Of a stretch of DNA of 64,000 bases, positions 5,855-61,434 are shown piece after piece. How positions within the stretch are numbered: the first letter of the stretch is position 1; the number at the start of each line of letters is the position of its first letter. The notes beneath the pieces were generated by a model. The model did no database searches. It was not told the DNA's origin and saw nothing but the letters and a program-made list of their open reading frames with translations. The position numbers were made by a program, and so were the translations under genes. The DNA comes from Candidatus Harrisonbacteria bacterium (lineage in GTDB: Bacteria > Patescibacteriota > Minisyncoccia > UBA6257 > 1-14-0-10-44-23), in the NCBI GenBank assembly GCA_023255625.1, contig JAHFLF010000001.1:94255-158254 (forward strand). The letters are read 5' to 3'.

Positions 5855-5860
5855 GCTGGT

Positions 5861-5945: not shown

Positions 5946-5946
5946 A

Positions 5947-8335: not shown

Positions 8336-8436
8336 ATCTCTGGTACGGGGTGTGAACCCCAGTAGTAGAACCTACTGGTTCACTACGGGGCACGGTGAAA
8401 CGCTCTACCACTGAGCTAAAGACGCCCTTCTTCGCT
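8336..8436 (-). pseudogene. tRNA-like 5' fragment (GGCGTCTTTAGCTCAGTGGTAGAGCGTT...) plus conserved 34-nt hairpin; no matching 3' half
   Basis: The 5' half (acceptor GGCGTCT, D-arm identical to tRNA-Val) is followed by hairpin CCCCGTAGTGAACCAGTAGGTTCTACTACTGGGG (8357-8390). No complementary AGACGCC acceptor strand is present. Fragment gcgaag.agGGCGTCTTTAGC repeats again at 8531-8553. Confidence 0.35.
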
Positions 8437-10099: not shown

Positions 10100-10208
10100 A
10101 AATAAGTTATAAAGTTATAAAGTTATAAAGTTCATCAAGTAGACACGGACGAACTCACAACTCTCTAACTTTTTAATTAATATTTTTAATTTCTCGACTT
10201 GATAAACT

Positions 10209-10757
10209 TTAAGAACTTGATGAACTTGCGACTAGCTCCGCGCGCTTTTTCCCGATTTCTTTCAGCGCGATGAGCAATTTGCGAATTGGGCCGGCCATCG
10301 TACCAACAACCTGCGCAAGGAGGACCTCACGGCTCGGGAGTTTAGCGATGACATTGAACTCGGCGACAGGAATCGCGCGGTTGCCCTCGCGGTCGTAGGC
10401 GCCAAGAACTTTGTACTCAATCTTGCTCTTTGCAAGCTCCTTTGAGAACTTAAAGATTGCAGCGGCAACAGAGGTCAAATCATCTTTTGCAAACACGGTT
10501 GCAACCTGCGCCTTGCTAGAGAGTGCATCCGGCTCAATGCCATGCTCTTTGAGCGCAATTTTGAGCAGACGCTTTTTAAAGACCTTGTAGGTCGCGCCAG
10601 CTTTTTTGAGCTCATTCTTCAGCCGATTGACATCTTTAGTCGGCGCGCCGGTAAAGTCAGCAAAGACGAGCGACTTGCTTCCCTTCACGAGCTTGCTACT
10701 CTCGGCAACATGCTCTTTCTTTTGTGCTTTTGTTAACATACTAATATGCGATACCAA
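10209..10757 (-). CDS. rplJ: 50S ribosomal protein L10
   Basis: L10 fold signature. Directly upstream of rplL. True start may be MLTKAQ at 10739. Confidence 0.85.
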   Translation of the reverse strand: MVSHISMLTKAQKKEHVAESSKLVKGSKSLVFADFTGAPTKDVNRLKNELKKAGATYKVFKKRLLKIALKEHGIEPDALSSKAQVATVFAKDDLTSVAAAIFKFSKELAKSKIEYKVLGAYDREGNRAIPVAEFNVIAKLPSREVLLAQVVGTMAGPIRKLLIALKEIGKKRAELVASSSSS

Positions 10758-10979
10758 TATACGAATTCATACCAATGCTACGAATGACAACGAATGAATT
10801 TCATACAATGGACCGCGATAAATTTTTCGACCTGACCAATAAAAAATGGCCGCTAGGCCGTAGTGGAATCCCGTCTCATGTTACATGTTACATGTTACAC
10901 GATATACGAAAACTTCCTCGGGCAGAAATTAAGGGTTACCCCACTGCCTGTCTACGGATACAGACAATATACTAGAAAG

Positions 10980-11858: not shown

Positions 11859-12572
11859 TTATTGTACTCCTCCATTTTCTTTTCGCCAAGCGTCAATCAA
11901 CTTGTGGTTCCCGCCTAAAAGTACTGGAGGTACTTTTAGAAGTTTGTAGTTTGTAGTTTGTAGTTTGTAGCGGATAGTTTCGGGTTTCGTAAAAACCGGG
12001 TACGAACCCTGATTCTCTTCCAATGATTCCGATTTGCCCAGCACGCCCGGAATTTGGCGCGAAACAGCATCAACAACAATTGCTGCCCCAAGCTCGCCGC
12101 CGGTAATTACATAATCTCCCAAAGAAATCTCCTCGTCAGCAACATACTGCGCCACGCGCTCGTCAACGCCCTCGTACCGGCCGCAAATAAAAATCAACTG
12201 GTCGTATTTTGCCAACCGCCGCGCCGCGGCGGCGTCAAAAACTTTCCCGCGAGTTGAGAACAAAATTACGCGGCTTTTCGTGCCCTTTGCCCTTTGCCCT
12301 TTGCCCTTCTTCGCGGCCGCTACTGCGGCCGCGATCGGCCCAAAACTCATCACCATCCCCGCCCCGCCCCCATAAGGCCGGTCATCTACTTTACGGTGTT
12401 TATCTTTTGAAAAAACCCTAATATCGTATGCCTGAATCTGTATCAATTTCTTTTCCTGCGCGCGCTTTAAAATAGACTCAGAAAAGTACGAATCCAAAAT
12501 CTTTGGAAAAATGGTAAGAATATCGAACCGGATCATGCGGGTCATACTACCCTTTTGCTCGTCTTCCGGCAA
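11859..12572 (-). CDS. trmD: tRNA (guanine37-N1)-methyltransferase TrmD, with low-complexity insert and C-terminal extension
   Basis: IRFDILTIFP...YGGGAGMVM...ICGRYEGVDERV TrmD (SPOUT) motifs. An internal ctttgcc x3 repeat encodes KGKGQRAKG. A gtttgta x4 tandem repeat (11929-11960) encodes the YKLQTTNYKLLK tail. Confidence 0.9.
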   Translation of the reverse strand: MPEDEQKGSMTRMIRFDILTIFPKILDSYFSESILKRAQEKKLIQIQAYDIRVFSKDKHRKVDDRPYGGGAGMVMSFGPIAAAVAAAKKGKGQRAKGTKSRVILFSTRGKVFDAAAARRLAKYDQLIFICGRYEGVDERVAQYVADEEISLGDYVITGGELGAAIVVDAVSRQIPGVLGKSESLEENQGSYPVFTKPETIRYKLQTTNYKLLKVPPVLLGGNHKLIDAWRKENGGVQ

Positions 12573-14190: not shown

Positions 14191-14195
14191 GCCAT

Positions 14196-14232
14196 GTTAC
14201 AGCGTACTAGTACGCTGTAACATGGCAACTAG
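14196..14232. repeat. 30-bp perfect palindrome TGTTACAGCGTAC-TAG-TACGCTGTAACA, copy 2 of 2
   Basis: Identical to 1303-1332. ~80 nt 3' of the rpsP stop. Confidence 0.7.
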
Positions 14233-17972: not shown

Positions 17973-17980
17973 GAATCAGT

Positions 17981-18068
17981 TAGTTTGTTAGTTAGTCCAT
18001 AGTTAGTTAGCAAAAATCGGATACATCTATTGTACTAAGTAACTAACCAACTAACAACCAACTAACCA
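17981..18068. repeat. TTAGTTAG-type inverted-repeat hairpin between smc and Cys-rich gene A
   Basis: cagttagtttgttagttagtcc...ctaaccaactaacaaccaactaaccaa. Confidence 0.55.
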
Positions 18069-18072
18069 AATC

Positions 18073-19803
18073 TCATGCCACCTCTTGCTGGTAACAGGGC
18101 TCACAGTAAACGATCTCGGGCTGTGTTGGCGCGTATGAAGTTTGAATAGGATCCTTGCACTTCTGGCACTCACGATCATAGACCTGGAGCTTGGTGCGCT
18201 GGCTAATGCGGGCAAAGTGGCGGCAGTTTGAGCAAAGCCTCGGGAGCGGCAGATTCATGCTGCGATAAAATGCGAGTTCATCAGGAAGTACGCGGAATGC
18301 AAGCGTACATTGGTCATTGCACGATCCGGCATGCTCGCAGCCAATAATATCTGCAGTAATAGCATCCGGAACGTCCTTAATATTATCCGGTAACTCACTC
18401 GCCGGCTTAGTCACTGTATAGTTGCGCTGTGCCGCATCGCGCCACGTAAAACCACTCGCTTGTGCCTGCTCTTTGGTAAGCGGAAAGTTCTCTTGTGCCA
18501 GCGTCTCGTTGTAGGCAAACGGCGAAAGCTCTGCCGGAAAATACTCGCCATATTTGTAAATCCTCCCCTGTGCATCTAGATATGGCATTGCATCCATCTG
18601 CGCCTTAATCTTTGCAACCAGCGCAACATACTCCTCTTTTGAATACTGCTTGTTTAAAATGCAGTACTCTTTTTTGCGGAGTCCAACGCAGCCAAATAAA
18701 TTTGATGAGGCCTGACACATATACGAATACTCAATGTCATGCACCTGCTCCTGCACGTTGTAGCAAAACTTGATGTTGTTGGTGCCGAGACCGCACGCAG
18801 TGCATTCATAAATCTGCTGGTTACCTGCTCCCCACGCAGTGTAGTCATAACAATCTTTGCTGGCGGGCGTCTCCTGTACATACTGACAGTAACGCAAATT
18901 CTCGCCTTCACGCACTAAAAATGAGTTGCGCACATTGCGAGAGTGGGAAATGTAATTGCCAGAAACATCGGTATTCTGCAGGCCATTAATATACTTATTG
19001 GGGAACTTCAGCCAGAACGCCCTCGCCTGCTCCCGCATAGCCTGCACGGCCGCATACGAACCAAGATTATATTCAGTAATCTTTTTCTCATACTCCTCCT
19101 TCGTATACTGCTCATTCCATATGCAGTAAGACTTTTTACGCAACCCGACGCAACCAAAACAGTTGCTTACGCCGACACAGTCTTTGGAAAATGCAATGTC
19201 GTACGAGCTCTCACATTGCGAAGAAAAAATCGCGTTGCGACACGAAGAAAGCCAAAATCCTTCATAGCATCGCTCAGACTTTTGAAGATGCGAATTATCA
19301 ACGCAATTCTTCACGCCGCCCAGCCCGTTGCCATACATGCAGTCCTCTGCGCCCTGGCCGTTGAAAGTTAAATAACAATTTTTTGGATCAGTAAAATTAT
19401 TCACATAATCACTATTCACGCCATTTACCACATTCAGATTTTTAAGCGGTACGCTGTGGAGCAATTCTTTGAACTGCTCAAAAAATGACTTTGCTTCATC
19501 AAAGTCGCGGCCATAGGTCATCGGGTCCCACAAATCAGAAAGCCAGACATCTTTTTCGTATACCTTCACGGACGAGTCGGGTGCAAAGGCAGAAAAAATA
19601 TCCTTGCCCGAATAATCACTCTTCCGTTTAAATAAAAATCGTTCATTACGAAACGCCATTCTGCGCTGTGCCCGACACAACCAACAAAACGTTGGCGGCG
19701 GCACCGAAACTTTTTTGTAAAATTCCAAATCAGCAGAATCAATAATGAAATCCTGTTTGCAGTTCTGGCAATTTCTAGTTTCCGAGGTTGTCATAGCTAC
19801 CAA
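18073..19803 (-). CDS. Cysteine-rich zinc-ribbon protein, paralog A (576 aa, unknown family)
   Basis: Many cysteines. N-terminal C-x2-C...C-x2-C (CQNCKQ...FCWLCR). Internal duplication FGCVGLRKKSYCIWNEQYTKEEYEKK / FGCVGLRKKEYCILNKQYSKEEYVAL. C-terminal CSNCRH...CQKCKD...YCEPCYQQEVA. Clearly homologous to 22898..24637. Confidence 0.65.
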   Translation of the reverse strand: MVAMTTSETRNCQNCKQDFIIDSADLEFYKKVSVPPPTFCWLCRAQRRMAFRNERFLFKRKSDYSGKDIFSAFAPDSSVKVYEKDVWLSDLWDPMTYGRDFDEAKSFFEQFKELLHSVPLKNLNVVNGVNSDYVNNFTDPKNCYLTFNGQGAEDCMYGNGLGGVKNCVDNSHLQKSERCYEGFWLSSCRNAIFSSQCESSYDIAFSKDCVGVSNCFGCVGLRKKSYCIWNEQYTKEEYEKKITEYNLGSYAAVQAMREQARAFWLKFPNKYINGLQNTDVSGNYISHSRNVRNSFLVREGENLRYCQYVQETPASKDCYDYTAWGAGNQQIYECTACGLGTNNIKFCYNVQEQVHDIEYSYMCQASSNLFGCVGLRKKEYCILNKQYSKEEYVALVAKIKAQMDAMPYLDAQGRIYKYGEYFPAELSPFAYNETLAQENFPLTKEQAQASGFTWRDAAQRNYTVTKPASELPDNIKDVPDAITADIIGCEHAGSCNDQCTLAFRVLPDELAFYRSMNLPLPRLCSNCRHFARISQRTKLQVYDRECQKCKDPIQTSYAPTQPEIVYCEPCYQQEVA

Positions 19804-22605: not shown

Positions 22606-22755
22606 CAAAAGAGCGCCCAACTTAGAGCCTTTCTCGGCTCGTGGTCGCTCAAATTCAGATCCGAAGGTGCGATCTCGCTTTCGTCCGCACGCTCAGATCA
22701 AAATTCAATACTACGCATTCAAGATAGCATGAATTCAAAATCCTGTCAATCCCCC
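22606..22755 (-). promoter_or_regulatory. Conserved ~110-nt 5' leader element, copy a (upstream of the ABC operon)
   Basis: Shares the core ...cagatcc.aag.gcgat.t.cg...c.cgctcagatc.aaa.tcaat.c... with 24700-24810 and 25375-25505. Minus-strand RNA ends in a U-rich tail right before the SBP start. Confidence 0.55.
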
Positions 22756-22897: not shown

Positions 22898-24637
22898 TTA
22901 TGCTACCTCTTGTTGATAACATTCTATGCAATATACTTTTTCGGGCCGGTCGGGGGCGTACGAAGTTTCAAATTGATTTTGGCATTGGGTTTCACCGTGC
23001 TGGTGCGTGGCCGCTCCCGGGCACTGACACGAACGCGGCCAGAGTGTAAGAGGATTGCGTTTCGCAATGCGCTCATAATGGCGGCAGTTTGGGCAGAGCC
23101 GCGGCAATGGCAATGATGCAAGTTTATAGAGAGTCAGGTCTTCCGGCAAAATTCTGAATGCGGTCGTACACTGATGCATGCATCCGTTATGAGCACAACT
23201 TATAATTGCCTTGGTCACCTCATCGCCAGCATCTGCGGCAGAATCCGGCAACTCATCTGGCTGCATCGTAATTTTATAGTTACGCTGCGGTTCATCTCGC
23301 CAGCCATAGCCGGCCACAATAGCATCTTCTTTTGAGAGAGGGAAGAAATCGTGCCCCATTGTTTCGTTGTACACAAATGGCGACAAATCACTTGGAAAAA
23401 ATTCGCCGTACTTGTAGACAAGCCCGCGCTTATCAATATATGGCGTCGTGTCCATTTGCATTTTTATCTTTCCGACCATCGTCTCATACTCCTCTTTGGT
23501 GTATTGCTTGTTCAAAATACAGTACTGACTTTTTTTCATACCAACGCAACCAAACAAATCTTTAGATCCGTGGCAGTTCATGACATATTCGCAATCAATG
23601 ACTTGCTCCCAGCACTCATTGGCAAATTTTAAATTGGCTATTTGTCTACCACAGTTTTGAACTTCATACATACGCTCGGCCGTCGCTCCCCAATGGTTAA
23701 AATCCATTGAATCTTTTGCATCAAAAAGCGAAAGCCCGTACCGAACATTCTGAACATTACGACAGGTGAAAGAACGGGAGACATCCTGACAATGGTCAAT
23801 CCAGTTGCCGCTCACTCGCATCCCTTGGCGCACAACAAGAGCCGGGACAATGAACTGTCTTTTAAATTCATCAAATTTTTTGCGAAGCAGCTCAACGGAA
23901 CGAGCCGAATGTATATTGAGTTCAGCAATTTTTTTCTCATACTCCTCTTTAGTGTACTGTTCGTTCCATATACAGTACTGTTTATTTTTCAAATTTACGC
24001 AGCCGAAAGAATTTTGAACATTCATACAGTTCAGCAAAAACCACGAGTCCGAGCAGTTATTTGATTCTTGCGAAAAGGCAACGCTGTAGCACTGCGAACA
24101 ATCAATGCACTCATAACACCGCTCTGATTTTTGTGTGCCAAAACAATCTAAACACTCTTTTGAGGACATAATCCAGGTACTATACCGAGAGTTTTCCGCG
24201 CCGGTCGTTGCAAACACAAGATAACAATTTTTCATATCTGTTACCCGATTTGTATACTCACTATTGATACTCTGACCCTGCTTGATAATGCCCGGGCGAG
24301 GCACGGCAAGCAGCAATTCTTTGAACTGCTCGAAAAATGGCCGGGTAAAATCGTAATCGCGCGCATATGTTTTTGCATCCCACGACTCTGACCACCAGCA
24401 CGGATAGCAAAAAACAGAATGAGGGCTGTCTGGGCTGTACATCAAAATCTTTTCCTGCTTGCAAAGTCCGCATGGACGCTTAAATAGTGTTCGCTCACTA
24501 CGCCAAATAAATCGCCGGAGCAGCCGGCACTGCGGACAAAATGTCGGCTCGGGTACTTTAAGCATGGTTAAAAACTCCGTGTCCTCCGCGGTAATTTCAA
24601 ACTGCTGCTTGCACTGCTGACAATTTTTTGCTGCCAT
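22898..24637 (-). CDS. Cysteine-rich zinc-ribbon protein, paralog B (579 aa)
   Basis: Same architecture as 18073..19803 (~45 % identity by eye). Internal duplicate FGCVNLKNKQYCIWNEQYTKEEYEKK / FGCVGMKKSQYCILNKQYTKEEYETM. Extra N-terminal CGLCKQ...CYPC ribbon. C-terminal ...YCIECYQQEVA. Confidence 0.65.
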   Translation of the reverse strand: MAAKNCQQCKQQFEITAEDTEFLTMLKVPEPTFCPQCRLLRRFIWRSERTLFKRPCGLCKQEKILMYSPDSPHSVFCYPCWWSESWDAKTYARDYDFTRPFFEQFKELLLAVPRPGIIKQGQSINSEYTNRVTDMKNCYLVFATTGAENSRYSTWIMSSKECLDCFGTQKSERCYECIDCSQCYSVAFSQESNNCSDSWFLLNCMNVQNSFGCVNLKNKQYCIWNEQYTKEEYEKKIAELNIHSARSVELLRKKFDEFKRQFIVPALVVRQGMRVSGNWIDHCQDVSRSFTCRNVQNVRYGLSLFDAKDSMDFNHWGATAERMYEVQNCGRQIANLKFANECWEQVIDCEYVMNCHGSKDLFGCVGMKKSQYCILNKQYTKEEYETMVGKIKMQMDTTPYIDKRGLVYKYGEFFPSDLSPFVYNETMGHDFFPLSKEDAIVAGYGWRDEPQRNYKITMQPDELPDSAADAGDEVTKAIISCAHNGCMHQCTTAFRILPEDLTLYKLASLPLPRLCPNCRHYERIAKRNPLTLWPRSCQCPGAATHQHGETQCQNQFETSYAPDRPEKVYCIECYQQEVA

Positions 24638-24699: not shown

Positions 24700-24810
24700 A
24701 CAACAAAAAGCGGCAAAATATATTGCTCGCTTCAATCCAGATCTAAACGCGCGATTTTCGACTATCCTCACGCTCAGATCCAAACTCAATGCTCTATGAT
24801 TACTTTAGCA
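24700..24810 (-). promoter_or_regulatory. Conserved 5' leader element, copy b (upstream of Cys-rich paralog B)
   Basis: Minus-strand RNA has stems GAUCUGAGCG / CGUUUAGAUC (compensatory pairs relative to the other copies). A terminator-like AAGCGAGCAA..UUGCCGCUU + UUUGUUGU sits ~60 nt before the ATG. Confidence 0.55.
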
Positions 24811-25374: not shown

Positions 25375-25505
25375 AAAACAAAAAGAGCCCTCAACGCGAG
25401 TGCTCAAATACAGATCCTAAAGCGCGATTTTCGACTATCCTCGCCGTAAGACCTACATTCAATGACAAAATAAGATTAGCATATCATAGCCAATCTGTCA
25501 ATCTC
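25375..25505 (-). promoter_or_regulatory. Conserved 5' leader element, copy c
   Basis: 22 nt (agcgcgattttcgactatcctc) identical to copy b. Minus RNA ends GAGCACUC GCGUU GAGGGCUC UUUUUGUUUUUU, a terminator-like hairpin plus U-run just upstream of the ORF. Confidence 0.55.
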
Positions 25506-27110: not shown

Positions 27111-27150
27111 ACTAGTTAATCGGTTAGTCAGTTAGTTGGTTAGTTAGTTT
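27111..27150. repeat. TTAGTTAG-type repeat cluster
   Basis: ctagttaatcggttagtcagttagttggttagttagttt. Confidence 0.5.
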
Positions 27151-34727: not shown

Positions 34728-34919
34728 GTAATGTCTTTCACGATTGCCTCCTTACCGAAACGACAATGCGCCGTTTGGAAAATCAGAATATAATATTTTT
34801 TATATTTAGTCAATTTTCCCAGTTGCACTACGGCTAATTTTTTGCTAAAATATATCTATCGTTTTTAAATTTCTCTTACGCATTAACCGACTAACTGTCG
34901 ACCGACTAACCGACTAACT

Positions 34920-38400: not shown

Positions 38401-38417
38401 GGCACAAATATCGCAGA

Positions 38418-38510
38418 TTTGCTTTTTAGAGGGACTCTCGGAGCGCGACGGCGCGAGAGCGAGGGCAATTTTTCAGCAGAAAAATATGCCTGTGCCCTCT
38501 AAAAAGCAAA
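38418..38510. repeat. Hairpin-core element copy 1: conserved ~60-nt core inside a 17-bp palindrome, at the gyrA 3' end
   Basis: ttgctttttagagggac [ctctcggagcgcgacggcgcgagagcgagggcaatttttcagcagaaaaatatgcct] gtgccctctaaaaagcaa. Core shared with copies at 46073-46195, 51268-51370, 61125-61245. Confidence 0.7.
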
Positions 38511-38521
38511 GCTGCGATATT

Positions 38522-38536
38522 TGTGGTATCATAAAT
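38522..38536 (+). promoter_or_regulatory. tgtggtatcataaat motif (variant of a recurring extended -10-like box)
   Basis: Same tgtggtatactaaat motif occurs at 43746 and 53543. Here it is only ~4 nt before the ATG, which would imply a leaderless transcript. Confidence 0.25.
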
Positions 38537-41561: not shown

Positions 41562-42044
41562 CTACTTCTTCTTCTCGAGCGCCCTGGCCTCGAACTGCTG
41601 GTCAGGGAGTCCGGCTTCGACATAGAAGACCGGATAGCGAGCCGTCTCGAAGACGGAGTTCTCGCCCAGGATGGCTCCACCATCCTCGAGCATGATGCGG
41701 AACTTCCGCTTGCACACTCGTTTGCCGATCTCCTGCACATCCTCGATCGTGTACGAGAGACCGGCCGCTACCTCTACACGAGCCCACTGCCCGGGTTGCA
41801 GCGGGAAAGCCGCAACGGCTCCCGGGAACGCCAGCGTGTACTCCCCTCCGTCGAGATTCGGAGGTACGCTCTTCACAGCGCTGGGCCGCCAGGAGACCAG
41901 CACTGCAATTCCGGCTCCAAGAAGGAGTAGGGTGATCGCGGCGGCCAGCCCCATGAAAAGCTTCGTCCGCCCGAAACTGGCCACGCTCACGCAATCCTCC
42001 ACATCATCGGGTGCATCTGCGGAGTTGGCAGGATTGCTACTCAT
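41562..42044 (-). CDS. small membrane protein, possible NfeD-like partner of the SPFH protein (160 aa), high-GC
   Basis: N-terminal TM. 4-nt overlap with the upstream SPFH gene (translational coupling). Function is inferred from the pairing only. Confidence 0.35.
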   Translation of the reverse strand: MSSNPANSADAPDDVEDCVSVASFGRTKLFMGLAAAITLLLLGAGIAVLVSWRPSAVKSVPPNLDGGEYTLAFPGAVAAFPLQPGQWARVEVAAGLSYTIEDVQEIGKRVCKRKFRIMLEDGGAILGENSVFETARYPVFYVEAGLPDQQFEARALEKKK

Positions 42045-43294
42045 GTTGTCGAACCTCCAGTCGGCACAGACAGACCGCCGGCCGTCAGACCGGCGGCAAG
42101 CCGCGCCGCCGCCGAGACCGATCCATCGTCAGCTACGACAACTTTCAGATCTGCCACCTTGATGCCTGCCTGCGCAAGCGCGCCGGCATAGGCAAGATTC
42201 GCCGTGACACCAAGCTTGACAGCACTCTCCGTCATCGCCGTGACACCAGGAGCCGTCTGCTCCGCAGCTTTGGCATCCTGTTGCGACTTCAACACCTTCT
42301 GCGCATACTCGATGCTCTTAGGGTCATACACCACCCCGATGAGCTCGCAGTTGTCGAAGGTGCATCCGATGTGCAGCTCGTGGTGTGACAGAGCGGTTTC
42401 AGAAATCCCGCCCTGATTGAACAGCACATTCATCTGATCCAGCGCTGCACGTACTGCAACTGCGTGCTTGCCGTACCAGACAAGCACATTGCCAGGCAGA
42501 ATCTCAACGAGTGACTGTCCGGCGGCAACACCCTCAACTCTTCGCCGGAATGCCGCGTCCTTGTGCAACGGAATGTGCAGTGACAACTCCGACTCGACGA
42601 ACAGCGCAAGCGCATGCCTGTTCTCGTCAAGATCCTTGCGGCTCATCTTCGCAAGCATCGACGTCAGGAGCCCCTTGATGGGACCCCTGATACCGACCTC
42701 CACGTGATGCGCGGCAAAGTTCCTCTGCCTCCTCTTCGCACCCTCGATCACCCAGTTGCCGTAGACGTTCAACCCATCCGAGTCAGCGATACGCGGGTCC
42801 GGGCAGACGGTCACCTGGAAGGTGACTTTGACAACTTCATGAGTCGTGAGCTGCTGTTCCACCTCGATCGTTATCGGCAACGGATTTGTCTCGATCTGAG
42901 CCATCCTGTTACCGATCCCGACCTTGTGCAGGCCAGGCCCGTGTGTCGCAGAGCGGATCTTGCCGCCACTGCTCTGAACCGCATACGATCGTCCACCGAC
43001 TGAACGGACGAACATAGCGAGCCAGAACCAGAGAACGCCAAGATAGGCGGCACCCAGACCCACGATGACCATGCCGAAAATGGCGCAGCTCATCCAGATG
43101 AATCCGCACAAGATCGAGACCAGAGCAATCGCGTAGGCGATACCCAAGCCCTGGAAATGCGGAGTCAACTCTCTCTTGAGGAAAGGCTCAATCTCCTCCC
43201 CCTCAAGAACCGTGCAGGTCACGAAAGCGTGCCCCGCCGGTGCAACTGTTGTCCCGGGCGATACTACCGCCGGGGGCGCAACATGACTAGTCAT
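42041..43294 (-). CDS. SPFH/Band-7 (flotillin/stomatin-like) membrane protein, high-GC
   Basis: GGGAGG 5 nt before ATG (MTSHVAPP...). TM helices, then ...VKVTFQVTVCPDPRIADSDGLNVYGNWVIEG...IRGPIKGLLTSMLAKMSRKDLDENRHALALFVESEL... SPFH-domain pattern, Ala-rich C-terminus. Confidence 0.6.
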   Translation of the reverse strand: MTSHVAPPAVVSPGTTVAPAGHAFVTCTVLEGEEIEPFLKRELTPHFQGLGIAYAIALVSILCGFIWMSCAIFGMVIVGLGAAYLGVLWFWLAMFVRSVGGRSYAVQSSGGKIRSATHGPGLHKVGIGNRMAQIETNPLPITIEVEQQLTTHEVVKVTFQVTVCPDPRIADSDGLNVYGNWVIEGAKRRQRNFAAHHVEVGIRGPIKGLLTSMLAKMSRKDLDENRHALALFVESELSLHIPLHKDAAFRRRVEGVAAGQSLVEILPGNVLVWYGKHAVAVRAALDQMNVLFNQGGISETALSHHELHIGCTFDNCELIGVVYDPKSIEYAQKVLKSQQDAKAAEQTAPGVTAMTESAVKLGVTANLAYAGALAQAGIKVADLKVVVADDGSVSAAARLAAGLTAGGLSVPTGGSTT

Positions 43295-43422
43295 CGCTAC
43301 CTCCCAGCCCGTAGAACGGGCCGTCGTTAGAAACCAACGGCCCAAACCGGGCCAGCCACGCCGTACGCCAGCGTTGGCCCTATTCGACTGTCCCATGCAG
43401 GCCCCACACGAGGCCAACATTG

Positions 43423-44352: not shown

Positions 44353-44402
44353 AATTCCCAATACCATAAATCTACCATGGTAGATTTATGGTATTGGGAA
44401 TT
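44353..44402. promoter_or_regulatory. 50-bp perfect palindrome centred on CCATGG (site 1)
   Basis: aattcccaataccataaatctaccatggtagatttatggtattgggaatt. Shares core ataccata..tctaccatggtaga..tatggtat with 45056-45087. Confidence 0.55.
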
Positions 44403-44430: not shown

Positions 44431-45045
44431 CTAAATCTTAACCTGGAGATTCTTGCCTGGAAATCGCAGTGTGCCAGATTTCGTTATTTCAAAAATATCA
44501 ACATACTGAGTTAAATTGGCTTCGGCGAGATCATCAATAAAACTCTCCGGTATCTGTCGTTTACCGATAAAAAGACTTCGCTGCAAAAATCGAAAACCAA
44601 ACTGACCAAGAGCACCCCTCAACCAATCGCGCTGTTGCCGCATCGTATGTGGAATATCATACGCAATAATAGTGACGCGATCGCTGGGCGTAGCAACATA
44701 TTTTTTTGCGCGTACGATATCAGAAAGATCATTTTCATGCTCATGGACCCAAGTTTTCCCTGCCTGCGTCATACTATAATGAGCTTCACGACCAATTCTG
44801 GTACTCTTAATAAGTCCGTCTTGCTTTAATGCTTGAATCAACCGTTGCGCGCGTTTCCATTCAAGTCGTTTTTGATGCTCATCAAAATGCTTCTTGTCAT
44901 ACTGCTGGCGAACCTGTTGCGCCGCCGCAAAACCCGCCCGAATCCCCCTCTGACGACCAAAGCCGCCACCAATCAAAAAGGATGCTATCTCTGCACTGGT
45001 ACGACCGACATCTGACAAAAAATATAAAATCTGTTTTCTCTTCAT
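44431..45045 (-). CDS. winged-HTH + Cas2-like (VapD/PaaX-C-like) domain protein, putative regulator (204 aa)
   Basis: C-terminal ...VTIIAYDIPHTMRQQRDWLRGALGQFGFRFLQRSLFIGK... resembles the Cas2/PaaX_C ferredoxin-like fold pattern (YD....RR..LR..L...G.R.Q.S.F). Assignment is tentative. Confidence 0.4.
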   Translation of the reverse strand: MKRKQILYFLSDVGRTSAEIASFLIGGGFGRQRGIRAGFAAAQQVRQQYDKKHFDEHQKRLEWKRAQRLIQALKQDGLIKSTRIGREAHYSMTQAGKTWVHEHENDLSDIVRAKKYVATPSDRVTIIAYDIPHTMRQQRDWLRGALGQFGFRFLQRSLFIGKRQIPESFIDDLAEANLTQYVDIFEITKSGTLRFPGKNLQVKI

Positions 45046-45055
45046 GCGTACATAA

Positions 45056-45087
45056 TACCATATTTCTACCATGGTAGAAATATGGTA
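45056..45087. promoter_or_regulatory. 32-bp perfect palindrome centred on CCATGG (site 2), ~11 nt upstream of the start of the 44431..45045 gene
   Basis: taccatatttctaccatggtagaaatatggta. The aa..tt versus tt..aa swaps relative to site 1 preserve dyad symmetry. Confidence 0.55.
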
Positions 45088-46072: not shown

Positions 46073-46195
46073 CGTAAAACATATTCGGGTCAGCGCTAGC
46101 GGCAATTCTCGGACCGCGACGGCGGGAGAGTATAGACCGATTTTTCACCAGAAAAATACGGACGGTGCCGTCTGCGCTGACCCGAATATGTTTTA
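46073..46195. repeat. Hairpin-core element copy 2 (inside a 20-bp perfect palindrome)
   Basis: gtaaaacatattcgggtcagcgc [tagcggcaattctcggaccgcgacggcgggagagtatagaccgatttttcaccagaaaaatacggacggtgccgtct] gcgctgacccgaatatgttttac. Confidence 0.7.
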
Positions 46196-46936
46196 CCTTA
46201 TTTCAATCACCGCCGGATCCGGATGAAATTCCAACTCCTCGTCTGAATACACAATCAGCGGGGCAAGCTCAACGCGCGCCGACTCTCCTGCCCCAATAAT
46301 CCACATCTCATGAGCCATATTGTGCGAATCATTATGTGCCTGCATCCCCCGCTGTATTCTGTGTCTCTGATATTGCTTAAGCCGTAGCTCACACCAATTC
46401 CCAATTCGCCCGCCAAGAAACGCTTCAAAAAACTTTTTCATTTTCGAATCGCGCGACGGATCATAACGCAGATCAGATTCCAAAATCCTTTTACCGACCC
46501 AATCAGAGTTTGCATCATAAAACTCCTGAATATTTTCGCGCATTCCATACACCGGCACTAATCGCTTGTACAATAACTTCCAGTACGGATTAACCGGTAA
46601 CCGCAGGCGGTATGACGCCTCGGTGACAAAGTGATTAAGGCAAACCTTGTTCGCCGCCGCCGCATTACCGTGCTCTTTCGCCCGTCGCCAGCCAAAAAGT
46701 CCCAGTGCGAGCGCCGCACAAAATCGGGCTGTAAAAATCCGGCCGGTGCGCACGCCAATCAACACATCAAAATCACTTTCTTCATCAACATTACCAACGG
46801 CCAGCGAGCCGCTGCCAAAGACAAATTCTATAAACGGAATATGCCGAAAAATCCAGGTGCGCTTAATAAACAGATGCCATTTTTTATCGTTTAGTAATTG
46901 CTGAACTCGGAACTCTCTGTTCTTTTCCTCTGTCAT
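46193..46936 (-). CDS. Nucleotidyltransferase (Pol-beta superfamily) domain protein
   Basis: FGSGSLAVGNVDEESDFDVLIGV is the GS-x9-13-D.D nucleotidyltransferase motif. Start at MTEEKNREF. Confidence 0.55.
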   Translation of the reverse strand: MTEEKNREFRVQQLLNDKKWHLFIKRTWIFRHIPFIEFVFGSGSLAVGNVDEESDFDVLIGVRTGRIFTARFCAALALGLFGWRRAKEHGNAAAANKVCLNHFVTEASYRLRLPVNPYWKLLYKRLVPVYGMRENIQEFYDANSDWVGKRILESDLRYDPSRDSKMKKFFEAFLGGRIGNWCELRLKQYQRHRIQRGMQAHNDSHNMAHEMWIIGAGESARVELAPLIVYSDEELEFHPDPAVIEIR

Positions 46937-46946: not shown

Positions 46947-48056
46947 TCATTCATCTGAAGCTGGTTTCTCGAGCCGTTTGACATCAAGCTCCATACTTTC
47001 ACCGGTGATGCGGGTAACATCTTTATCAACCTTGCCAAGCTCCTTATAGGCGGCGTTGAAATGGTTAACTGTCGTGCCGAGGGAGTTGTGAACCTTACTC
47101 ATATACTCATCATAGGCCTTTAAGTGCTTGCCCAACTCATCAACCCGCTTGATTATATCCTTGGCGCCCTGCTCAATCTTAAACGCTTTGAATCCATAAA
47201 TTACTGAGGTCAGATATGCATAAAAAGTTGTCGGCGAAACAATAATGACATGCTTTTCGTGCATCGCGTAGTCAATCAAATTGCGAGTATTAACCTTGAC
47301 TGAACCAACCTCATTGACTAACAGGTCATAATAAATACCTTCAGCCGGAATAAACATAAAGGCAAACGGCAAAGTCCCCTCCTCCGGCCGGATATATTTT
47401 GCTGTTTCGTCAATTCTTTTCTTCAAATCATTTTTAAATTCTTTTTCTAACTCCTCGCGCTGATTGTCATCAATGGCATTGGTAACGCGGTTATAGTTAT
47501 CCAATGAAAATTTTGCATCAACGCAGATGATGCCCTCTTTGGTCGAGATGATAGCATCCACGGTTTCGCCATTTTTAAATGCATACTGAAGCGAGTACTG
47601 GCCAGGTGAGAGCATATTCGACAAAATCAGCTCCAAAGAAAGCTCGCCCAAATTTCCGCGCTGTTTCTGATGCTTTAAAGTTTTTTCCAGATTCGCCAGT
47701 TGTTCTGCGATAGTCACAAACTGCTTGGTCTGTTCATTCGTTTTCGTTTGCTCGCGTGTGACATCAACCAAAGACTTATTCATCTGTTCGCTAATCTCGC
47801 GCAAAAGCTGCTGACTTTGGCTAAACTGATGCCGGACACTCTCGGTCATCTCTTTACGGCTCTCGCCAAGTTTAGAGTCCACCGACTGGGTAAGTTGCTG
47901 AAGCTGCTGCTGAAGCAACACCATGCCCTGGCCATCTTCTTTGGGCATGGCCGCGCGACGCAAATACCACCAGATGAAGGTAAAACCCAAGAGCAAAACA
48001 ATCAGCAAAATTACAAAGTAAAGAAGTGTCATATGGCCAGTATAACCAATATTCAA
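46947..48056 (-). CDS. rmuC: DNA recombination protein RmuC
   Basis: N-terminal TM, long coiled-coil, conserved RmuC C-terminal domain (...FMFIPAEGIYYDLL...HVIIVSPTTFYAYL...). Confidence 0.75.
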   Translation of the reverse strand: MNIGYTGHMTLLYFVILLIVLLLGFTFIWWYLRRAAMPKEDGQGMVLLQQQLQQLTQSVDSKLGESRKEMTESVRHQFSQSQQLLREISEQMNKSLVDVTREQTKTNEQTKQFVTIAEQLANLEKTLKHQKQRGNLGELSLELILSNMLSPGQYSLQYAFKNGETVDAIISTKEGIICVDAKFSLDNYNRVTNAIDDNQREELEKEFKNDLKKRIDETAKYIRPEEGTLPFAFMFIPAEGIYYDLLVNEVGSVKVNTRNLIDYAMHEKHVIIVSPTTFYAYLTSVIYGFKAFKIEQGAKDIIKRVDELGKHLKAYDEYMSKVHNSLGTTVNHFNAAYKELGKVDKDVTRITGESMELDVKRLEKPASDE

Positions 48057-48629: not shown

Positions 48630-50195
48630 CTACTGCAAAAAAGGTAGCAAACTCTGTCCGGTCATCTCTGATGGTTTTAAAATTTTTAGAAGCTCCAGCA
48701 CAGTCGGAGCAACATCCGATAGAATGCCGATTGCGCCCGGAGTCGAGCTGGCCGGCTTCGGCTCTGCCCGCTTAAATTCCGGACCAAGCACATAAACCGG
48801 TACCGGGCTTAAATCGTGTGTCGTCTCCACGCTGCCGGTCATCGCGTCAATCATCACCTCGGCATTACCGTGATCCGCAGTAACCACAAGGTAGCTGCCG
48901 GTTTCTTCGCAGCCCTTTACAATCCGACCAAGTTGCTCGTCGACGGTCTGAACTGCTATAACCGCTGCAGCAAAATTACCAGTATGTGCCACCATGTCTG
49001 CATTGGCAAAATTCAAAATAATTACATCAAATTCCCGCTTCTGCATGGCCTGAACAACTCGGTCGGCAATCGCAAAAGCCATCATTTGCGGCTCCTTATC
49101 ATGACTCTCAACATTGCGGGATGGAATCAGCATTTTTGACTGGCCCGGAAACGGCTCATCGCGATAACCGTTGAAAAAATAAGTAACATGGGCATATTTT
49201 TCGGTCTCCGCGATTAAAAGCTGCGTCAATCCGCTTTCAGAAATCACCTTGCCAAGCGGTTTGGTTATCTCCTCCGGCGGAAAGGCAACCGGAACTTTAA
49301 AATGTTTAGTATACTCGGTCATCGTTGCAATATACAAATTCTGAAATTGCTTAACCGGAAATTTATCAAACTCTTTTTCGATAAAACTGCCGGCCAGCTG
49401 CCGGATGCTGTCCTCACGAAAATCAATAAAAATTAAAGCGTCGTTGTCTCGGACTGGCCGGCCGGCACCGGCCACGCTAATCGGCGGCAAATACTCATCA
49501 CTCTGGTCTGGACTGGCATCATATAGATGGTTAACTAACTCCTCTACTGGGCGCGGTTCGGGTGCGAGCGTGCCGGTGATCGCATCATAGGCGCGCTGCG
49601 TCCGATCAAAGTGACTGTCGCGATCCAAAGCAAAATGCCGGCCGCAAAGACTGGCCAGCGCACCCACTCCGGCCTGTTCTGTAACCTGCCGTAATTTAGT
49701 TAGAAGCTGAAGAACGGAATGAGGACGGCTATCTTTGCCGTCCGCAAATAGATGCAAATTCACTTTTTTCACTCCGTTATCCGCCGCCGCCTGAATCAGC
49801 GCCGCCAGATGATCAAATGCTGCATGGATAGCCCCCTCGGTTAAAAGTCCGGCGATATTTAACGCTGAATCATTTGTTTTAACATGGGTAAATGCGTCTT
49901 GAAAAACCGGATTTTTTGCAAACTCTCCGCGTTCGATAGCCAAAGTGATACGCGGATAGTGCTGATATAAAACTTTGCCCGCACCGATAGTTAAGTGCCC
50001 CACCTCGCTGTTACCCACCTCGTTCCAAGGTAAACCAACTGCAATTCCCGAGGCCTGCAAGGCGCCACCCAGATAATGCTGCGCCAGATACGGAATGGTT
50101 TTCAAATCGGCCTTGGCGATTGGATTTGTAAAATCCGGCCGGCCTATCCCCCAACCGTCCAAAATTGCCAAAACAAGCATTGGTTTTTTGTCCAT
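48630..50195 (-). CDS. gpmI: 2,3-bisphosphoglycerate-independent phosphoglycerate mutase
   Basis: LAILDGWGIG...NSEVGHLTIGAG... and C-terminal ...ADHGNAE... iPGM metal-site motifs. Confidence 0.9.
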   Translation of the reverse strand: MDKKPMLVLAILDGWGIGRPDFTNPIAKADLKTIPYLAQHYLGGALQASGIAVGLPWNEVGNSEVGHLTIGAGKVLYQHYPRITLAIERGEFAKNPVFQDAFTHVKTNDSALNIAGLLTEGAIHAAFDHLAALIQAAADNGVKKVNLHLFADGKDSRPHSVLQLLTKLRQVTEQAGVGALASLCGRHFALDRDSHFDRTQRAYDAITGTLAPEPRPVEELVNHLYDASPDQSDEYLPPISVAGAGRPVRDNDALIFIDFREDSIRQLAGSFIEKEFDKFPVKQFQNLYIATMTEYTKHFKVPVAFPPEEITKPLGKVISESGLTQLLIAETEKYAHVTYFFNGYRDEPFPGQSKMLIPSRNVESHDKEPQMMAFAIADRVVQAMQKREFDVIILNFANADMVAHTGNFAAAVIAVQTVDEQLGRIVKGCEETGSYLVVTADHGNAEVMIDAMTGSVETTHDLSPVPVYVLGPEFKRAEPKPASSTPGAIGILSDVAPTVLELLKILKPSEMTGQSLLPFLQ

Positions 50196-50204
50196 TTTAG
50201 AAGT

Positions 50205-50460
50205 ATAACATGGGGATAGGGATTAGAGGTTGCTAGATGCTGCTAGAGGTTGATAGGTAAACTTAGAGGAAACTAGCTTGGCGCGGCCCGAGTACGGGCC
50301 GCGGCGGTTTCGTTCTAACCCGAACCCCTTGCTAGCATCCTCTAGCAGCATCTAGCACCCTCTAGCAGCCTCTAGCAGCCTCTAGCAGCCTCTAGCAGCC
50401 TCTAGCAGCCTCTAGCAGCCTCTAGCAGCATCTAGCAGCATCTAGCCCCGTTGACTTTAT
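50205..50460. repeat. Tandem array: ~13 direct copies of 10-bp unit CTCTAGCAGC (50338-50455), mirrored by 3-4 inverted copies (50212-50245) across a GC hairpin (50281-50306)
   Basis: ...ctctagcagcatctagcaccctctagcagcctctagcagcctctagcagc...; upstream gctagatgctgctagaggttg; centre gcggcccgagtacgggccgc. In the divergent region between gpmI and the 50525 gene. Confidence 0.8.
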
Positions 50461-50524
50461 AGGCGAAAAAGAATAATTTAACGCTTGAGAGGCGTACTCT
50501 CAAGGGAATGGAAAGGAGCCACCA

Positions 50525-51163
50525 GTGCTGGGATTCATCTGGGTCGTACTCATCGTTATCTGTTTCGCGGCGGCCATTTATCTCGGCGAATGCACCAGGT
50601 ATGACAGGAAACATGGCGTAGGTGACGGGATCATCAACGAGAGACTGTCCTTCTTCTTTGGGATCCTCTGTTTCCTGATGTGCTTCGCACCACTTCTGTT
50701 CGAGTTCGTGCCCTTCTCGGGAAAGGGCAGCTATGTCGTCGCGGTCAGAAACGACGGCAGCTACACCAAGTACCCGTACGGCTGCTGGGAGTGGACGGAT
50801 GGAGAGCTCTACACAGTGTGGAGTCCTCTACCTGAATCCAGAGAGATCCTGCTAAATCCGGACGATCCGGGCACCAAGCTCCCATACTCCGTCACTCTGA
50901 AGATATCGGATCCGGGCATCTACTTCAACCAGAAGGAAATGGATTGGAAGAAGAAGCAAGCGCTTTTCCACTTCTTCCTGGTCCAGCTCGAGCAGCCGGG
51001 TTGGGAACATGACTTCCGGGAGTTCACCGATCCGGCCAACCAGGAGCAGCAGCGCCGCTTCGTGGAACTCGTCCTGCCCTGGCTCAACCAGCGTCTGGCC
51101 AAGTACGGCCTGGGCGCTACGGACGCCTCGTTCGCGGCTCGAACAACGCCGCCAAAGGACTAG
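50525..51163 (+). CDS. hypothetical membrane protein, high-GC (212 aa)
   Basis: GGAAAGGAG then GTG start. Two TM helices. GC3-biased codons. Confidence 0.5.
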   Translation: MLGFIWVVLIVICFAAAIYLGECTRYDRKHGVGDGIINERLSFFFGILCFLMCFAPLLFEFVPFSGKGSYVVAVRNDGSYTKYPYGCWEWTDGELYTVWSPLPESREILLNPDDPGTKLPYSVTLKISDPGIYFNQKEMDWKKKQALFHFFLVQLEQPGWEHDFREFTDPANQEQQRRFVELVLPWLNQRLAKYGLGATDASFAARTTPPKD

Positions 51164-51267
51164 CGATCTAGTCCTTGCTGCCGCGGGTTGGCGAAAGCCA
51201 ACCCGCGGCACATCTTTTTTATACTAAAAATTAACCAGCCGTCACCGCTCAATACAGCTCTATTTAG

Positions 51268-51370
51268 CGGAACAGCCGGGATTTTTATTCCTGGGGACTC
51301 TCACAGGCCGACGGGCCGAGAGCGAGGGTGAATTTTCTCCAGAAAATTACACCTGTGCCCCAGGAATAAA
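51268..51370. repeat. Hairpin-core element copy 3 (inside a ~20-bp palindrome)
   Basis: ccgggatttttattcctggggac [tctcacaggccgacgggccgagagcgagggtgaattttctccagaaaattacacct] gtgccccaggaataaaaatcccgg. Confidence 0.7.
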
Positions 51371-51527
51371 AATCCCGGGCACTCCGTTAACCTATTGACC
51401 TATAACGGCTCTCTACCGTATACTTCTAGTGAGACTTTTCTCACTTTACTATCTAATGTATTTCTGTTCCCTAAAAATTTCATGATCGAGATCGTGGTTG
51501 TGAAGAACATACGGGACATCTACTCAT

Positions 51528-53066: not shown

Positions 53067-53067
53067 G

Positions 53068-53165
53068 AATTTAGTTAGTTGGTTAATTAGTTAGCTGGTT
53101 AGTTGGTAGAAACGAAATTCCAGTCTCGCTAACTAACAAACTAACTAGCTAACCAACTAACCAAT
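53068..53165. repeat. TTAGTTAG-type inverted-repeat hairpin downstream of rny
   Basis: tagttagttggttaattagttagctggttagttgg ... cgctaactaacaaactaactagctaaccaactaacc. Confidence 0.55.
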
Positions 53166-53261
53166 GGCCCCTGTGGATAACCCGCGCTATTGCTTGTCTA
53201 ACGCAAGCTCGTGTATAATTGCGGCATTAATAAAGTAGTCGAAAAAAATTATATATAAATT

Positions 53262-53537
53262 ATGAAAAAAGATGATCTGGTTGAGGCATTGTACAAAGGC
53301 GCGCAGCTCCCGACCAAGAAACAAGCCGGTGAGATTGTCGAATGGTTCTTTGACACCATTACCGACACCCTGAAAAAAGGCGAAGAGGTCGGCATTACCG
53401 GCTTTGGCACCTTTAAAGTCATGAAGCGAGCCGCTCGGGTCGGCCGAAACCCGAAGACTGGTGAGAAAATACAGATTAAGGCCTCTAACTCGCCTAAATT
53501 CAAAGCCGGCTCGCTCCTCCGGGCTGCGGTAAAATAG
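53262..53537 (+). CDS. hup: DNA-binding protein HU
   Basis: ...ITGFGTFKVMKRAARVGRNPKTGEKIQI... HU/IHF arm. Confidence 0.92.
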   Translation: MKKDDLVEALYKGAQLPTKKQAGEIVEWFFDTITDTLKKGEEVGITGFGTFKVMKRAARVGRNPKTGEKIQIKASNSPKFKAGSLLRAAVK

Positions 53538-53829: not shown

Positions 53830-53918
53830 TCAGTTAGTTAGTTGACGGTTAGTCGGTTAGTTAGTAAGCACCGGCAAACCTTGCAGTTGAGGATATATCT
53901 GGTAGAATAATCTGCATT

Positions 53919-54414: not shown

Positions 54415-54897
54415 CTAGGGCAAAGTCATCAATGCTTTCCCCAGAATCGCGAGCTTCACGCACTCCGGCAGGACGAAGACATTGTGGTTCTGGCCGATCG
54501 CGTCGACAGTCCCCAGAGTGGCTCTGCGCCAACGCGGGTCCCACTCCTTCAGACCGCGCTTCTTCCGACACAGCTCGGCGGCCCTCCTGGTTCGGAAGAG
54601 CGCCACGATGTCGGTAGTGCGCCCCCGAAGCATGGAACTGTTCATCTGCCAGAACTGACGACCGTACTTCGTCTGCGGGTAGAAGAGAACCAGACCGCCG
54701 ATCTGTCCACCTCCGCCGATCCCGACCATCGAACCACCCACAAATTGGTGGCCGACCTTCATACTGGCCTTGGCCCTTCCGGCAACCTTCTTCACGGTTG
54801 GGTCGCCAAATTCATTGATGGCGTCGGACATCAGGTAGACCGACCCGGAGCATGTCACTGCGAACAGACGCTTTAGCTGCTGCTTTGGGCTCTTCAT
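54415..54897 (-). CDS. hypothetical protein, high-GC (160 aa)
   Basis: GC-rich island with GC3-biased codons. No motif. Confidence 0.4.
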   Translation of the reverse strand: MKSPKQQLKRLFAVTCSGSVYLMSDAINEFGDPTVKKVAGRAKASMKVGHQFVGGSMVGIGGGGQIGGLVLFYPQTKYGRQFWQMNSSMLRGRTTDIVALFRTRRAAELCRKKRGLKEWDPRWRRATLGTVDAIGQNHNVFVLPECVKLAILGKALMTLP

Positions 54898-61124: not shown

Positions 61125-61245
61125 TCGCGTTATTCCGTCCTGCCCAGACGGGGCCGGCATATTTTTCTGCTGAAAAATTGCCTCTGGTCTCGCTCCGCCG
61201 AGCTGCGACACGCCCCGCTTAGGGCAGGACAGAATAACGCTCGCA
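61125..61245. repeat. Hairpin-core element copy 4 (inverted orientation, inside a 19-bp palindrome) between convergent genes
   Basis: gcgttattccgtcctgccc [...ggcatatttttctgctgaaaaattgcctctggtctcgctccgccgagctgcgacacgcc...] gggcaggacagaataacgc. The reverse complement of the core matches copy 1. Confidence 0.7.
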
Positions 61246-61434
61246 AGAGAATCGTGACTCGTGCGTAGCACGAGTCACGAAGAAGTACGCTAAATAAAAA
61301 TCCCGCGTTCAGCTGATAACGCAGGATTTTAAAGAGGATCGTCTCTCGGATACCGAGTTTAATGACCCTTCAAGTGGCCTGTTTTCATATACAGAAAGTA
61401 TAACACAACCGCTGACGCCCTGTGGATAAAAAAT

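Follow-up and report, generated by a model that had tools for sequence, protein, structure and literature searches.

What is a nearly perfect run of 10-bp tandem repeats doing between two divergently transcribed genes of an uncultured bacterium, and need it do anything at all? The locus that raises this question lies in a 64-kb stretch of DNA, here called the window, from Candidatus Harrisonbacteria bacterium (assembly GCA_023255625.1, contig JAHFLF010000001.1, positions 94,255 to 158,254), where the repeat array separates gpmI from a gene for a 212-aa membrane protein. The organism belongs to the Patescibacteria or candidate phyla radiation (CPR), a large uncultured bacterial group whose genomes are generally held to be regulator-poor. 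Upon comparison with ~70 kb of DNA from relatives, the array is most likely an ordinary variable repeat and not an iteron or regulator-binding array. More specifically, we put forward, with a probability of roughly 55%, that it is a slippage-generated variable-number tandem repeat (VNTR), a minisatellite with a 10-bp unit, that constitutes the overgrown right arm of an imperfect palindrome of ~237 bp and affects its surroundings at most passively; slippage as the cause and the passive nature of the effect are what we infer from the observations described below. A limited literature search revealed no report of repeat-mediated variation in Patescibacteria.

The array as one arm of an imperfect palindrome

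The element consists of the following parts, none of which is assigned to a strand:

50212..50449: whole insert GGGG...CCCC, a ~237-bp imperfect palindrome composed of the left arm, a pair of small hairpins and the array-bearing right arm
50223..50277: left arm, six degenerate inverted 10-bp units in a register common with the right arm
50282..50303: GC-rich hairpin with a gcggcccg-agta-cgggccgc core at 50283-50302, 9-bp stem and AGTA loop
50306..50326: second small hairpin GGTTTCG ... CGAACC, predicted in folds and adjoining the GC hairpin
50332..50446: tandem array forming the right arm, 12 CTAG-phased 10-bp units
50360..50429: perfect core of seven consecutive CTCTAGCAGC units, the segment that differs in length (three units in the contig L016)

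Tandem Repeats Finder (TRF) describes the array at 50332-50446 with a period of 10, 11.5 copies, 94% matches and a score of 195, which makes it by far the strongest among the 44 TRF rows for the window. The motif CTAG recurs twelve times at an exact spacing of 10 bp from 50332 to 50445, and such clusters were not encountered in any of 100 shuffles. Eight of the twelve units are exact copies of CTCTAGCAGC; when up to one mismatch is accepted, this unit occurs 16 times compared with 2.9 +/- 1.7 times in shuffled sequence. The perfect core is bounded by the variant end-units ATCTAGCACC at 50350 and ATCTAGCAGC at 50430. The array thus presents itself as short units in head-to-tail arrangement, several of them identical, as is characteristic of VNTRs and minisatellites.

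A sequence-only reading that preceded this analysis had reported 13 tandem copies with three to four inverted copies upstream, arranged around a central GC palindrome. The array itself is real and its copy number has to be lowered to twelve CTAG-phased units. Inverted copies are indeed present; there are six, all degenerate apart from a single exact one (GCTGCTAGAG, 50239-50248). The GC hairpin likewise exists, but the symmetry centre of the large palindrome lies elsewhere, near 50304. The arms 50224-50277 and 50331-50384 comprise 54 nt each and are 78% complementary, a value that rises to 91% for the inner 33 nt. While the first ~3-5 array units pair with the left arm, the remaining ~8 run rightward past the palindrome. 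For the core palindrome (50216-50365) a fold of ~-80 kcal/mol with a z-score near -8 is calculated on either strand. The assumption that every unit presents the same helical face does not survive simple arithmetic: at 10.5 bp per turn the drift amounts to ~17 degrees per unit and ~200 degrees over twelve units.

A lineage-specific insert between conserved core promoters

The immediate neighbourhood of the palindrome is made up by two genes and their predicted core promoters:

48630..50195, minus strand: gpmI, 2,3-bisphosphoglycerate-independent phosphoglycerate mutase (Pfam Metalloenzyme and iPGM_N, E 1e-65 and 1e-56)
50202..50210, minus strand: core promoter of gpmI with the extended -10 TGTTATACT located 6 nt ahead of its ATG
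50451..50479, plus strand: P212 core promoter, TTGACT 50451-50456, 17-nt spacer, TAATTT 50474-50479
50525..51163, plus strand: gene for a 212-aa membrane protein of a rare family with two N-terminal helices and an SPFH/Band-7-like domain

The array had therefore been placed correctly between the start of gpmI and the open reading frame at 50525, and the divergent promoter region that had been proposed is genuine, as both core promoters are conserved in relatives (71-76% gpmI identity to the window). The motif TGnTATA(C/A)T sits 6-11 nt before the gpmI ATG in six of them (L020, L021, L023, L027, L028 and L029), a distance so short that a leaderless-type mRNA is implied. L027 has TTGACT, 17 nt and TAATTT, identical in hexamers and spacing to P212 of the window, and the counterpart in L028, CCC-TTGACATTATAG, is closely similar to CCCCG-TTGACTTTATAG of the window. 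A consensus promoter scanner does not call P212 because its -10 box matches the consensus in just three of six positions. Judged by this conservation, both sites probably function as core promoters, P212 as a predicted sigma-70-type promoter and that of gpmI as a predicted leaderless-type one.

Two relatives, L028 and L027 (whose gpmI is 73% identical), carry a counterpart of the 212-aa gene at the same position, divergent from gpmI, and the spacer between the two genes amounts to ~130 bp with no repeats. While ~16 bp separate the gpmI -10 from the P212 -35 element in L027 and 38 bp do so in L028, the distance in the window is 244 bp. As the genes and promoters are the same, this difference in spacing identifies the palindrome and the array as a lineage-specific addition, either an insert or an in-situ expansion between core promoters that were ancestrally arranged back to back. 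In five further relatives gpmI is directly divergent from rny, in one case with a different gene in the slot; no repeats are present at the gpmI locus in the four of these whose DNA was read.

The absence of repeats from relatives that keep both genes and both core promoters is not compatible with a conserved operator array, and the phased transcription factor array envisaged in the sequence-only reading loses its footing as a conserved feature. Nor does the array tune promoter spacing in the proposed sense. The palindrome lies upstream of both core promoters and its last unit stops 4 nt before the P212 -35 box, such that the array is located outside the -35/-10 interval and could affect no more than the sequence environment upstream of P212 and the spacing between the divergent promoters.

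Length variation between assemblies

Two contigs of an independent assembly from the same species (L016 and L018, ENA ERZ27297344) can be aligned with the window along ~17 kb, in which two single-nucleotide polymorphisms occur. The sole indel in these ~17 kb measures 40 bp, i.e. four units, and falls inside the perfect core, which comprises seven exact units in the window and three in the ENA assembly. The imperfect arrays at 53071-53161, 53830-53865 and 47405-47445, on the other hand, are identical between the window and the ENA assembly. Variation in the perfect core combined with none in imperfect arrays is what slippage predicts, and the earlier suggestion that the tract is slippage-prone is supported by the four-unit difference.

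A further contig, L017 (Logan, k=31), stems from another run and begins with exactly 30 nt of perfect repeat, which suggests that arrays in this sample either carry no fewer than ~4 perfect units or vary in length. Since the same variant end-units are found in L016, L017 and the window, i.e. in three independent assemblies, the existence of the array is not an artefact; its copy number alone is open to doubt. Copy number differs while the flanks are conserved, as expected for a VNTR, albeit in a single short-read assembly in which collapse is possible. A true length polymorphism is therefore likely, not proven.

Short-unit arrays and palindromes elsewhere in the window

The array is not the only product of its kind. 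A strict periodicity detector marks six segments in the window and none in 61.7 kb from four relatives or in shuffled sequence, and TRF arrays with a period below 12 are lacking in the DNA of three relatives. Short-period arrays and palindromes were noted at the following positions:

5855-5950: TTAG/CTAA palindrome between mraZ and rsmH
17973-18072 and 53067-53165: intergenic TTAG/CTAA palindromes
27114-27149, 34884-34918 and 53830-53865: single TTAG/CTAA arms
10097-10134, 10197-10228 and 10873-10899: arrays near putative rplL and rplJ
11941-11970 and 12281-12308: two perfect arrays of four 7-bp units inside trmD (11859-12572, minus strand), an essential gene

All eight TTAG/CTAA clusters are intergenic, and three of them are palindromes with arms of 34-36 nt, a short period of 4 or 8 bp and fold z-scores of -4.5 to -7.7. 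The palindrome after rny occupies the site at which relatives carry a conventional GC-rich terminator hairpin. With a period of 4, TTAG/CTAA places a stop codon in every frame of both strands. In trmD, (TGCCCTT)x4 corresponds to a seven-residue insertion relative to solved TrmD structures, in agreement with three extra units adding 21 bp in frame, while (AGTTTGT)x4.3 coincides with a four-residue insertion. Relatives show this behaviour to a far lesser degree, and L027 is the only one with weak traces of it, in the form of CTAA-type stretches; judged from these, multiplication of short units may be older and fainter in that lineage.

Taken as a whole, these features give the impression that 7-10-bp units are multiplied throughout the genome by a mutational process of which selection spares only the harmless outcomes, and the CTCTAGCAGC array looks like its most extreme product. 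The array would then have arisen through a tandem multiplication process at work elsewhere in the genome, which would also build long palindromes at gene boundaries, and neither a dedicated protein nor a dedicated RNA function would be required. Gain or loss of a unit would shift the length upstream of the P212 -35 box by about one helical turn and move the divergent promoters apart or together. Since the unit corresponds to approximately one helical turn and the tract is situated outside the -35/-10 spacer, at most graded modulation is expected: the outcome for the promoter of the SPFH-like gene, and possibly for gpmI, would be a rheostat-like change at best and not an on/off switch.

It is also conceivable, if a rather long shot, that long palindromes are being built at gene boundaries by a process specific to this lineage and that the array is the portion still growing. 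Slippage might act in such a process together with intrastrand template switching or hairpin-primed synthesis, and the process would cover the TTAG/CTAA palindromes, the in-frame 7-bp arrays of trmD and a four-copy element described below. If this holds true, we would be dealing with a new class of self-generated intergenic elements acting as terminator substitutes, RNase III/Y processing sites or promoter insulators, and the CTAG palindrome would insulate, in a tunable manner, two promoters that formerly overlapped. Should length variation be confirmed in reads, CPR populations would carry hypermutable promoter-proximal repeats and the locus could serve as a natural marker for strains. Perhaps more important is the wider pattern, as it suggests that a mutational or structural process peculiar to this lineage is at work, one accessible to comparative genomics alone.

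Several further observations concern the same group of arrays. A slip by a single unit in either of the trmD arrays would lead to a frameshift. (AAGTTATA)x3.6 adjoins the start codon of putative rplL (9731-10099), with an AACTT-type partner in inverted orientation at a distance of 60 nt, and (CATGTTA)x3.3 is found in a non-coding stretch of 636 bp upstream of putative rplJ. Four perfect arrays are grouped within 10.1-12.3 kb.

Alternative explanations and known systems

A number of points weigh against a slippage-generated VNTR with passive effects. The 10-bp register of both arms and the abutting -35 box are compatible with a protein-binding array as well, and seven identical consecutive units could stem from recent selection as well as from slippage. 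The difference in copy number is drawn from one short-read assembly, in which the 31-nt periodic run of L016 has the very length that a single minimal pass around a de Bruijn cycle would leave at k = 22-31; collapse by the assembler is therefore possible. Lastly, the genome-wide habit is extrapolated from the 64-kb window together with ~70 kb of DNA from relatives.

The most obvious competitor would be an adaptive contingency or rheostat locus, in which selection keeps the array and gain or loss of units tunes expression of the SPFH-like protein or of gpmI via altered upstream contacts of RNA polymerase or via coupling between the divergent promoters. A perfect seven-unit core that differs in length between near-identical assemblies, the end of the tract 4 nt from a conserved -35 box, a fast-evolving membrane protein downstream (38% identity where gpmI has 73%) and the regulator-poor nature generally ascribed to CPR genomes all speak in its favour. 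There are precedents for rheostat repeats upstream of the -35 box, namely the T-tract beside the -35 box of Helicobacter pylori sabA (PMC4081817) and the TAAA tract upstream of the Neisseria meningitidis nadA promoter (PMC2791445). Just as in these cases, a slippage-prone repeat is located directly upstream of -35 and outside the -35/-10 spacer, changes in its length alter the upstream context and the spacing to distal elements, and a gene for a membrane or surface protein follows. The units of sabA and nadA, however, measure 1 or 4 bp, whereas 10-bp steps of about one turn keep the phase nearly constant, such that large switching is not expected. Furthermore, the Harrisonbacteria array has an inverted partner arm, two divergent promoters and no known operators for regulators, and its host is an environmental CPR bacterium and not a host-adapted pathogen. 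Given that the genome also makes perfect arrays where regulation is impossible, for example inside trmD, and that the window contains no second locus of this kind, we consider selection for tunable expression unlikely. Another proposal invokes a protein that recognizes the CTAG-centred unit in both orientations and loops or occludes both promoters. It would account for the 10-bp register in both arms, their inverted symmetry and the adjacency of both core promoters, and a gene for an HU/IHF-like protein is in fact located two genes downstream (53262-53537). Relatives with the same genes, promoters and HU-like gene nevertheless have no such sites, and neither a regulator gene, rep gene or DnaA-box cluster nor a skew extremum adjoins the array. 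The unit does not exceed chance elsewhere in the window, where no second array of CTCTAGCAGC exists either, and probing a metagenome collection with 2.5 units yielded two contigs only, which were judged coincidental (L024 is probably eukaryotic, and the context of L025 is unrelated). Neither is CTAG specifically depleted elsewhere in the window (observed/expected 0.88). On this evidence a protein-binding array has a small chance of being correct.

An RNA-based function has about as little in its favour. It would require an unrecognized promoter from which the palindrome is transcribed into a long double-stranded stem that serves as a target for RNase III or RNase Y and controls gpmI or the SPFH-like gene. 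The fold is very stable on either strand, and a promoter-like site on the minus strand (TTGAGA, 17 nt, TAAATT at 50503-50475) faces the array. Both conserved core promoters, however, fire away from the element; the minus-strand site matches in 9 of 12 positions, a quality that chance alone should produce roughly once over the region scanned, and visual inspection gives no sign of its conservation in L027. The (ATCTTTC)n repeat of Haemophilus influenzae hmw1A/hmw2A is an array in the 5'-untranslated region (UTR) that is cut by RNase III and leads to copy-number-graded expression (PMC12721329; PMC8262952), and this 7-bp repeat, with more than ten copies, constitutes one arm of a 5'-UTR hairpin (PMC12721329). 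Both are multi-copy repeats that lie upstream of a gene and form one arm of a long hairpin, yet the hmw array is transcribed, while the CTAG array lies upstream of both conserved core promoters and its transcription is hypothetical. The sole Rfam family to match was TwoAYGGAY (RF01731), with a hit below threshold that covers the core palindrome; both have an internal GC-rich hairpin enclosed by a long outer stem. The palindrome scores 35.6 bits against a gathering threshold of 43, lacks the first of two hairpins as well as both AYGGAY loops, and has the loop GAGUAC instead. The element is also absent from relatives. Insertion of a small non-autonomous mobile element, of the miniature inverted-repeat transposable element (MITE), repetitive extragenic palindromic (REP) or BOX-like type, with the arms as inverted ends, would agree with the discrete insert of ~237 bp relative to L027 and L028 and its GGGG...CCCC ends. 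BOX elements (A-Bn-C) of Streptococcus pneumoniae and enterobacterial REP sequences and bacterial interspersed mosaic elements (BIME) occur in many dispersed conserved copies with modules of ~35-45 bp. They are also intergenic, with ends that can pair and a tandem middle module of variable copy number, but the array element has a 10-bp unit and is single-copy as far as seen, with no other copy in the window or at the relatives' loci. Moreover, no target-site duplication is visible at the ends of the insert, a transposase is not found nearby, and the arms are internally periodic, unlike a conserved terminal repeat. Mobile origin is thus very improbable, and there is hardly any room for the notion that the array or its length difference is an assembly artefact, although short-read assemblers can collapse tandem repeats; the identical variant end-units in three independent assemblies speak for the existence of the array, not for its copy number.

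The closest counterparts of the array as a slippage-generated minisatellite are bacterial VNTR loci with 7-12-bp units, as used in multiple-locus VNTR analysis (MLVA), among them phase-variable intergenic repeats reported for Mycobacterium tuberculosis (PMC12817950). Like the array, these are intergenic minisatellites that stem from replication slippage and whose copy number differs between near-identical strains. There is no difference in kind; nothing but its palindromic partner arm and its occurrence in a CPR bacterium sets the array apart.

Iterons are direct repeats of 17-22 bp that are bound by a Rep initiator at an origin. Like them, the array consists of phased direct repeats in non-coding DNA; unlike them, it has a shorter unit of 10 bp, no rep gene, AT-rich unwinding region, DnaA-box cluster or skew switch, and it is absent from relatives. 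Cumulative GC skew is monotonic through 50.3 kb without an extremum, DnaA boxes are lacking in the 50-51 kb region, and neither a rep nor a dnaA initiator gene occurs near the array, its neighbours being gpmI, the SPFH-like gene and rny. The iteron or origin assignment made from sequence alone had to be abandoned. Two further candidates were rejected. An intrinsic terminator is at odds with the position between two outward-firing promoters, and the terminator scanner calls none there. The idea that CTAG is avoided and that the array acts as a CTAG sink finds no backing in an unremarkable Markov-based observed/expected ratio outside the element.

Flanking genes

The nearest homologs of the gpmI product reach 76% identity at best and come from Patescibacteria (Paceibacterota, "Candidatus Harrisonbacteria"), while a collection of species-representative genomes yielded matches of only ~41% identity (Legionella and others). 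A search for an entry identical to the gpmI of the window gave no match. Both ENA contigs of the same species stop inside gpmI at window position 49824/49825. In L018, nt 1-275 past this breakpoint are unrelated high-GC sequence, and its gpmI is thus called with only 377 aa. The Logan contig L019 ends no more than 10 nt from the same breakpoint, which reflects structural variation within the population or else a branch in the assembly.

On the other side of the palindrome, two further features were read for the 212-aa gene:

50484..50518, plus strand: 5'-UTR with a small hairpin CTTGAGAG/CTCTCAAG and the Shine-Dalgarno sequence GGAAAGGAG (50510-50518), read from the sequence
51179..51220, plus strand: intrinsic terminator with a 14-bp GC-rich stem followed by a T-run, the only one called by the terminator scanner

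The homologs in L027 and L028 likewise have a GGAG-type Shine-Dalgarno sequence. The 212-aa protein has no match in Pfam, NCBIfam, PADLOC or PHROG, and a word-indexed search returned nothing but itself. With an exhaustive HMMER search, ~20 full-length homologs of 24-39% identity were retrieved, and clear common motifs emerged in the alignment. The AlphaFold model has a mean confidence score (pLDDT) of 92, and the top 23 Foldseek matches in the PDB are all stomatin, flotillin, prohibitin or HflK/C, with modest values (E ~1e-3, template modelling score ~0.4). Weak fold similarity without a Pfam Band_7 match is in line with a small membrane-anchored SPFH-like protein, which the gene is predicted to encode on the basis of this model.

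The codon-position GC contents of the gene are 0.56 (GC1), 0.39 (GC2) and 0.76 (GC3). In every lineage the GC3 of the SPFH-like gene is 0.70-0.84, compared with 0.39-0.53 for neighbouring genes (homologs measured in L027 at 4001-4612, L028 at 177-794 and L026 at 26-670). High GC3 is also a property of other window genes without assigned function (41562-43420 and 54415-54897). A GC3 of 0.76 together with absence of the gene from L020, L021 and L023 had suggested a recent foreign insertion. The idea was dropped because L027 and L028 have homologs in the corresponding place, whose GC3 is equally high (0.79-0.84). A defence or phage origin of the neighbouring genes without assigned function was likewise discarded, as PADLOC and PHROG yielded no matches. 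The gene following that for the 212-aa protein is rny, encoding RNase Y.

A dispersed four-copy element

Beyond the array, a second type of element was noted in the window:

~38403-38525 (plus strand), 46074-46196 (plus), 51264-51390 (plus) and 61126-61240 (minus): copies of a dispersed element with a conserved core

The conserved core of ~61 nt contains the hairpins CTCTC..GCGC-GACG-GCGC..GAGAG and AATTTTTC-AGCA-GAAAAAT. It is enclosed by inverted arms of 31-33 nt that are unrelated in sequence between loci and always 61 nt apart, and compensatory changes affect 11 of 29 predicted pairs. No Rfam family matches the element, and a covariance model (R1) finds it in this species only, with no hit in ~62 kb from relatives. 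The element is undescribed. The three copies whose flanks were read all follow 3' ends of genes, and one copy is situated in the same gpmI-rny interval as the array. In architecture, i.e. a long locus-specific stem that closes two hairpins, it resembles the CTAG palindrome; the sequences are unrelated.

Further observations in the window

A gene for a PaaX-like regulator (44431-45072) is flanked by a perfect 25+25-nt palindrome at 44353-44402 and an 88% similar copy at 45054-45087, both of which are candidate operator or terminator sites. The palindrome TGTTACAGCGTACTAGTACGCTGTAACA is present in two intergenic copies, 1300-1332 and 14195-14227, that are 97% complementary and 12.9 kb apart. An intergenic module of ~60 nt (..CAGATC..GCGCGATTTTCGACTATCCTC..) precedes three consecutive minus-strand genes (22684-22712, 24729-24793 and 25402-25464) and looks like a shared promoter or leader. 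Part of a tRNA-Val gene is duplicated (8396-8419 versus 8306-8329, 24 nt, 96% identical, 90 nt from the gene, in a 287-bp spacer), perhaps as a scar left by integration. Two isolated sites are perfect DnaA-box nonamers (TTATCCACA), 53172-53180 and 61421-61429, the former just upstream of the promoter of the HU-like gene, where one is also found in L021 in opposite orientation. Finally, two paralogous genes for proteins of ~577 aa (18073-19803 and 22898-24637) have no Pfam domain, share several blocks of 45-108 nt at 70-79% identity, and each contain an internal duplication ~455 nt apart.

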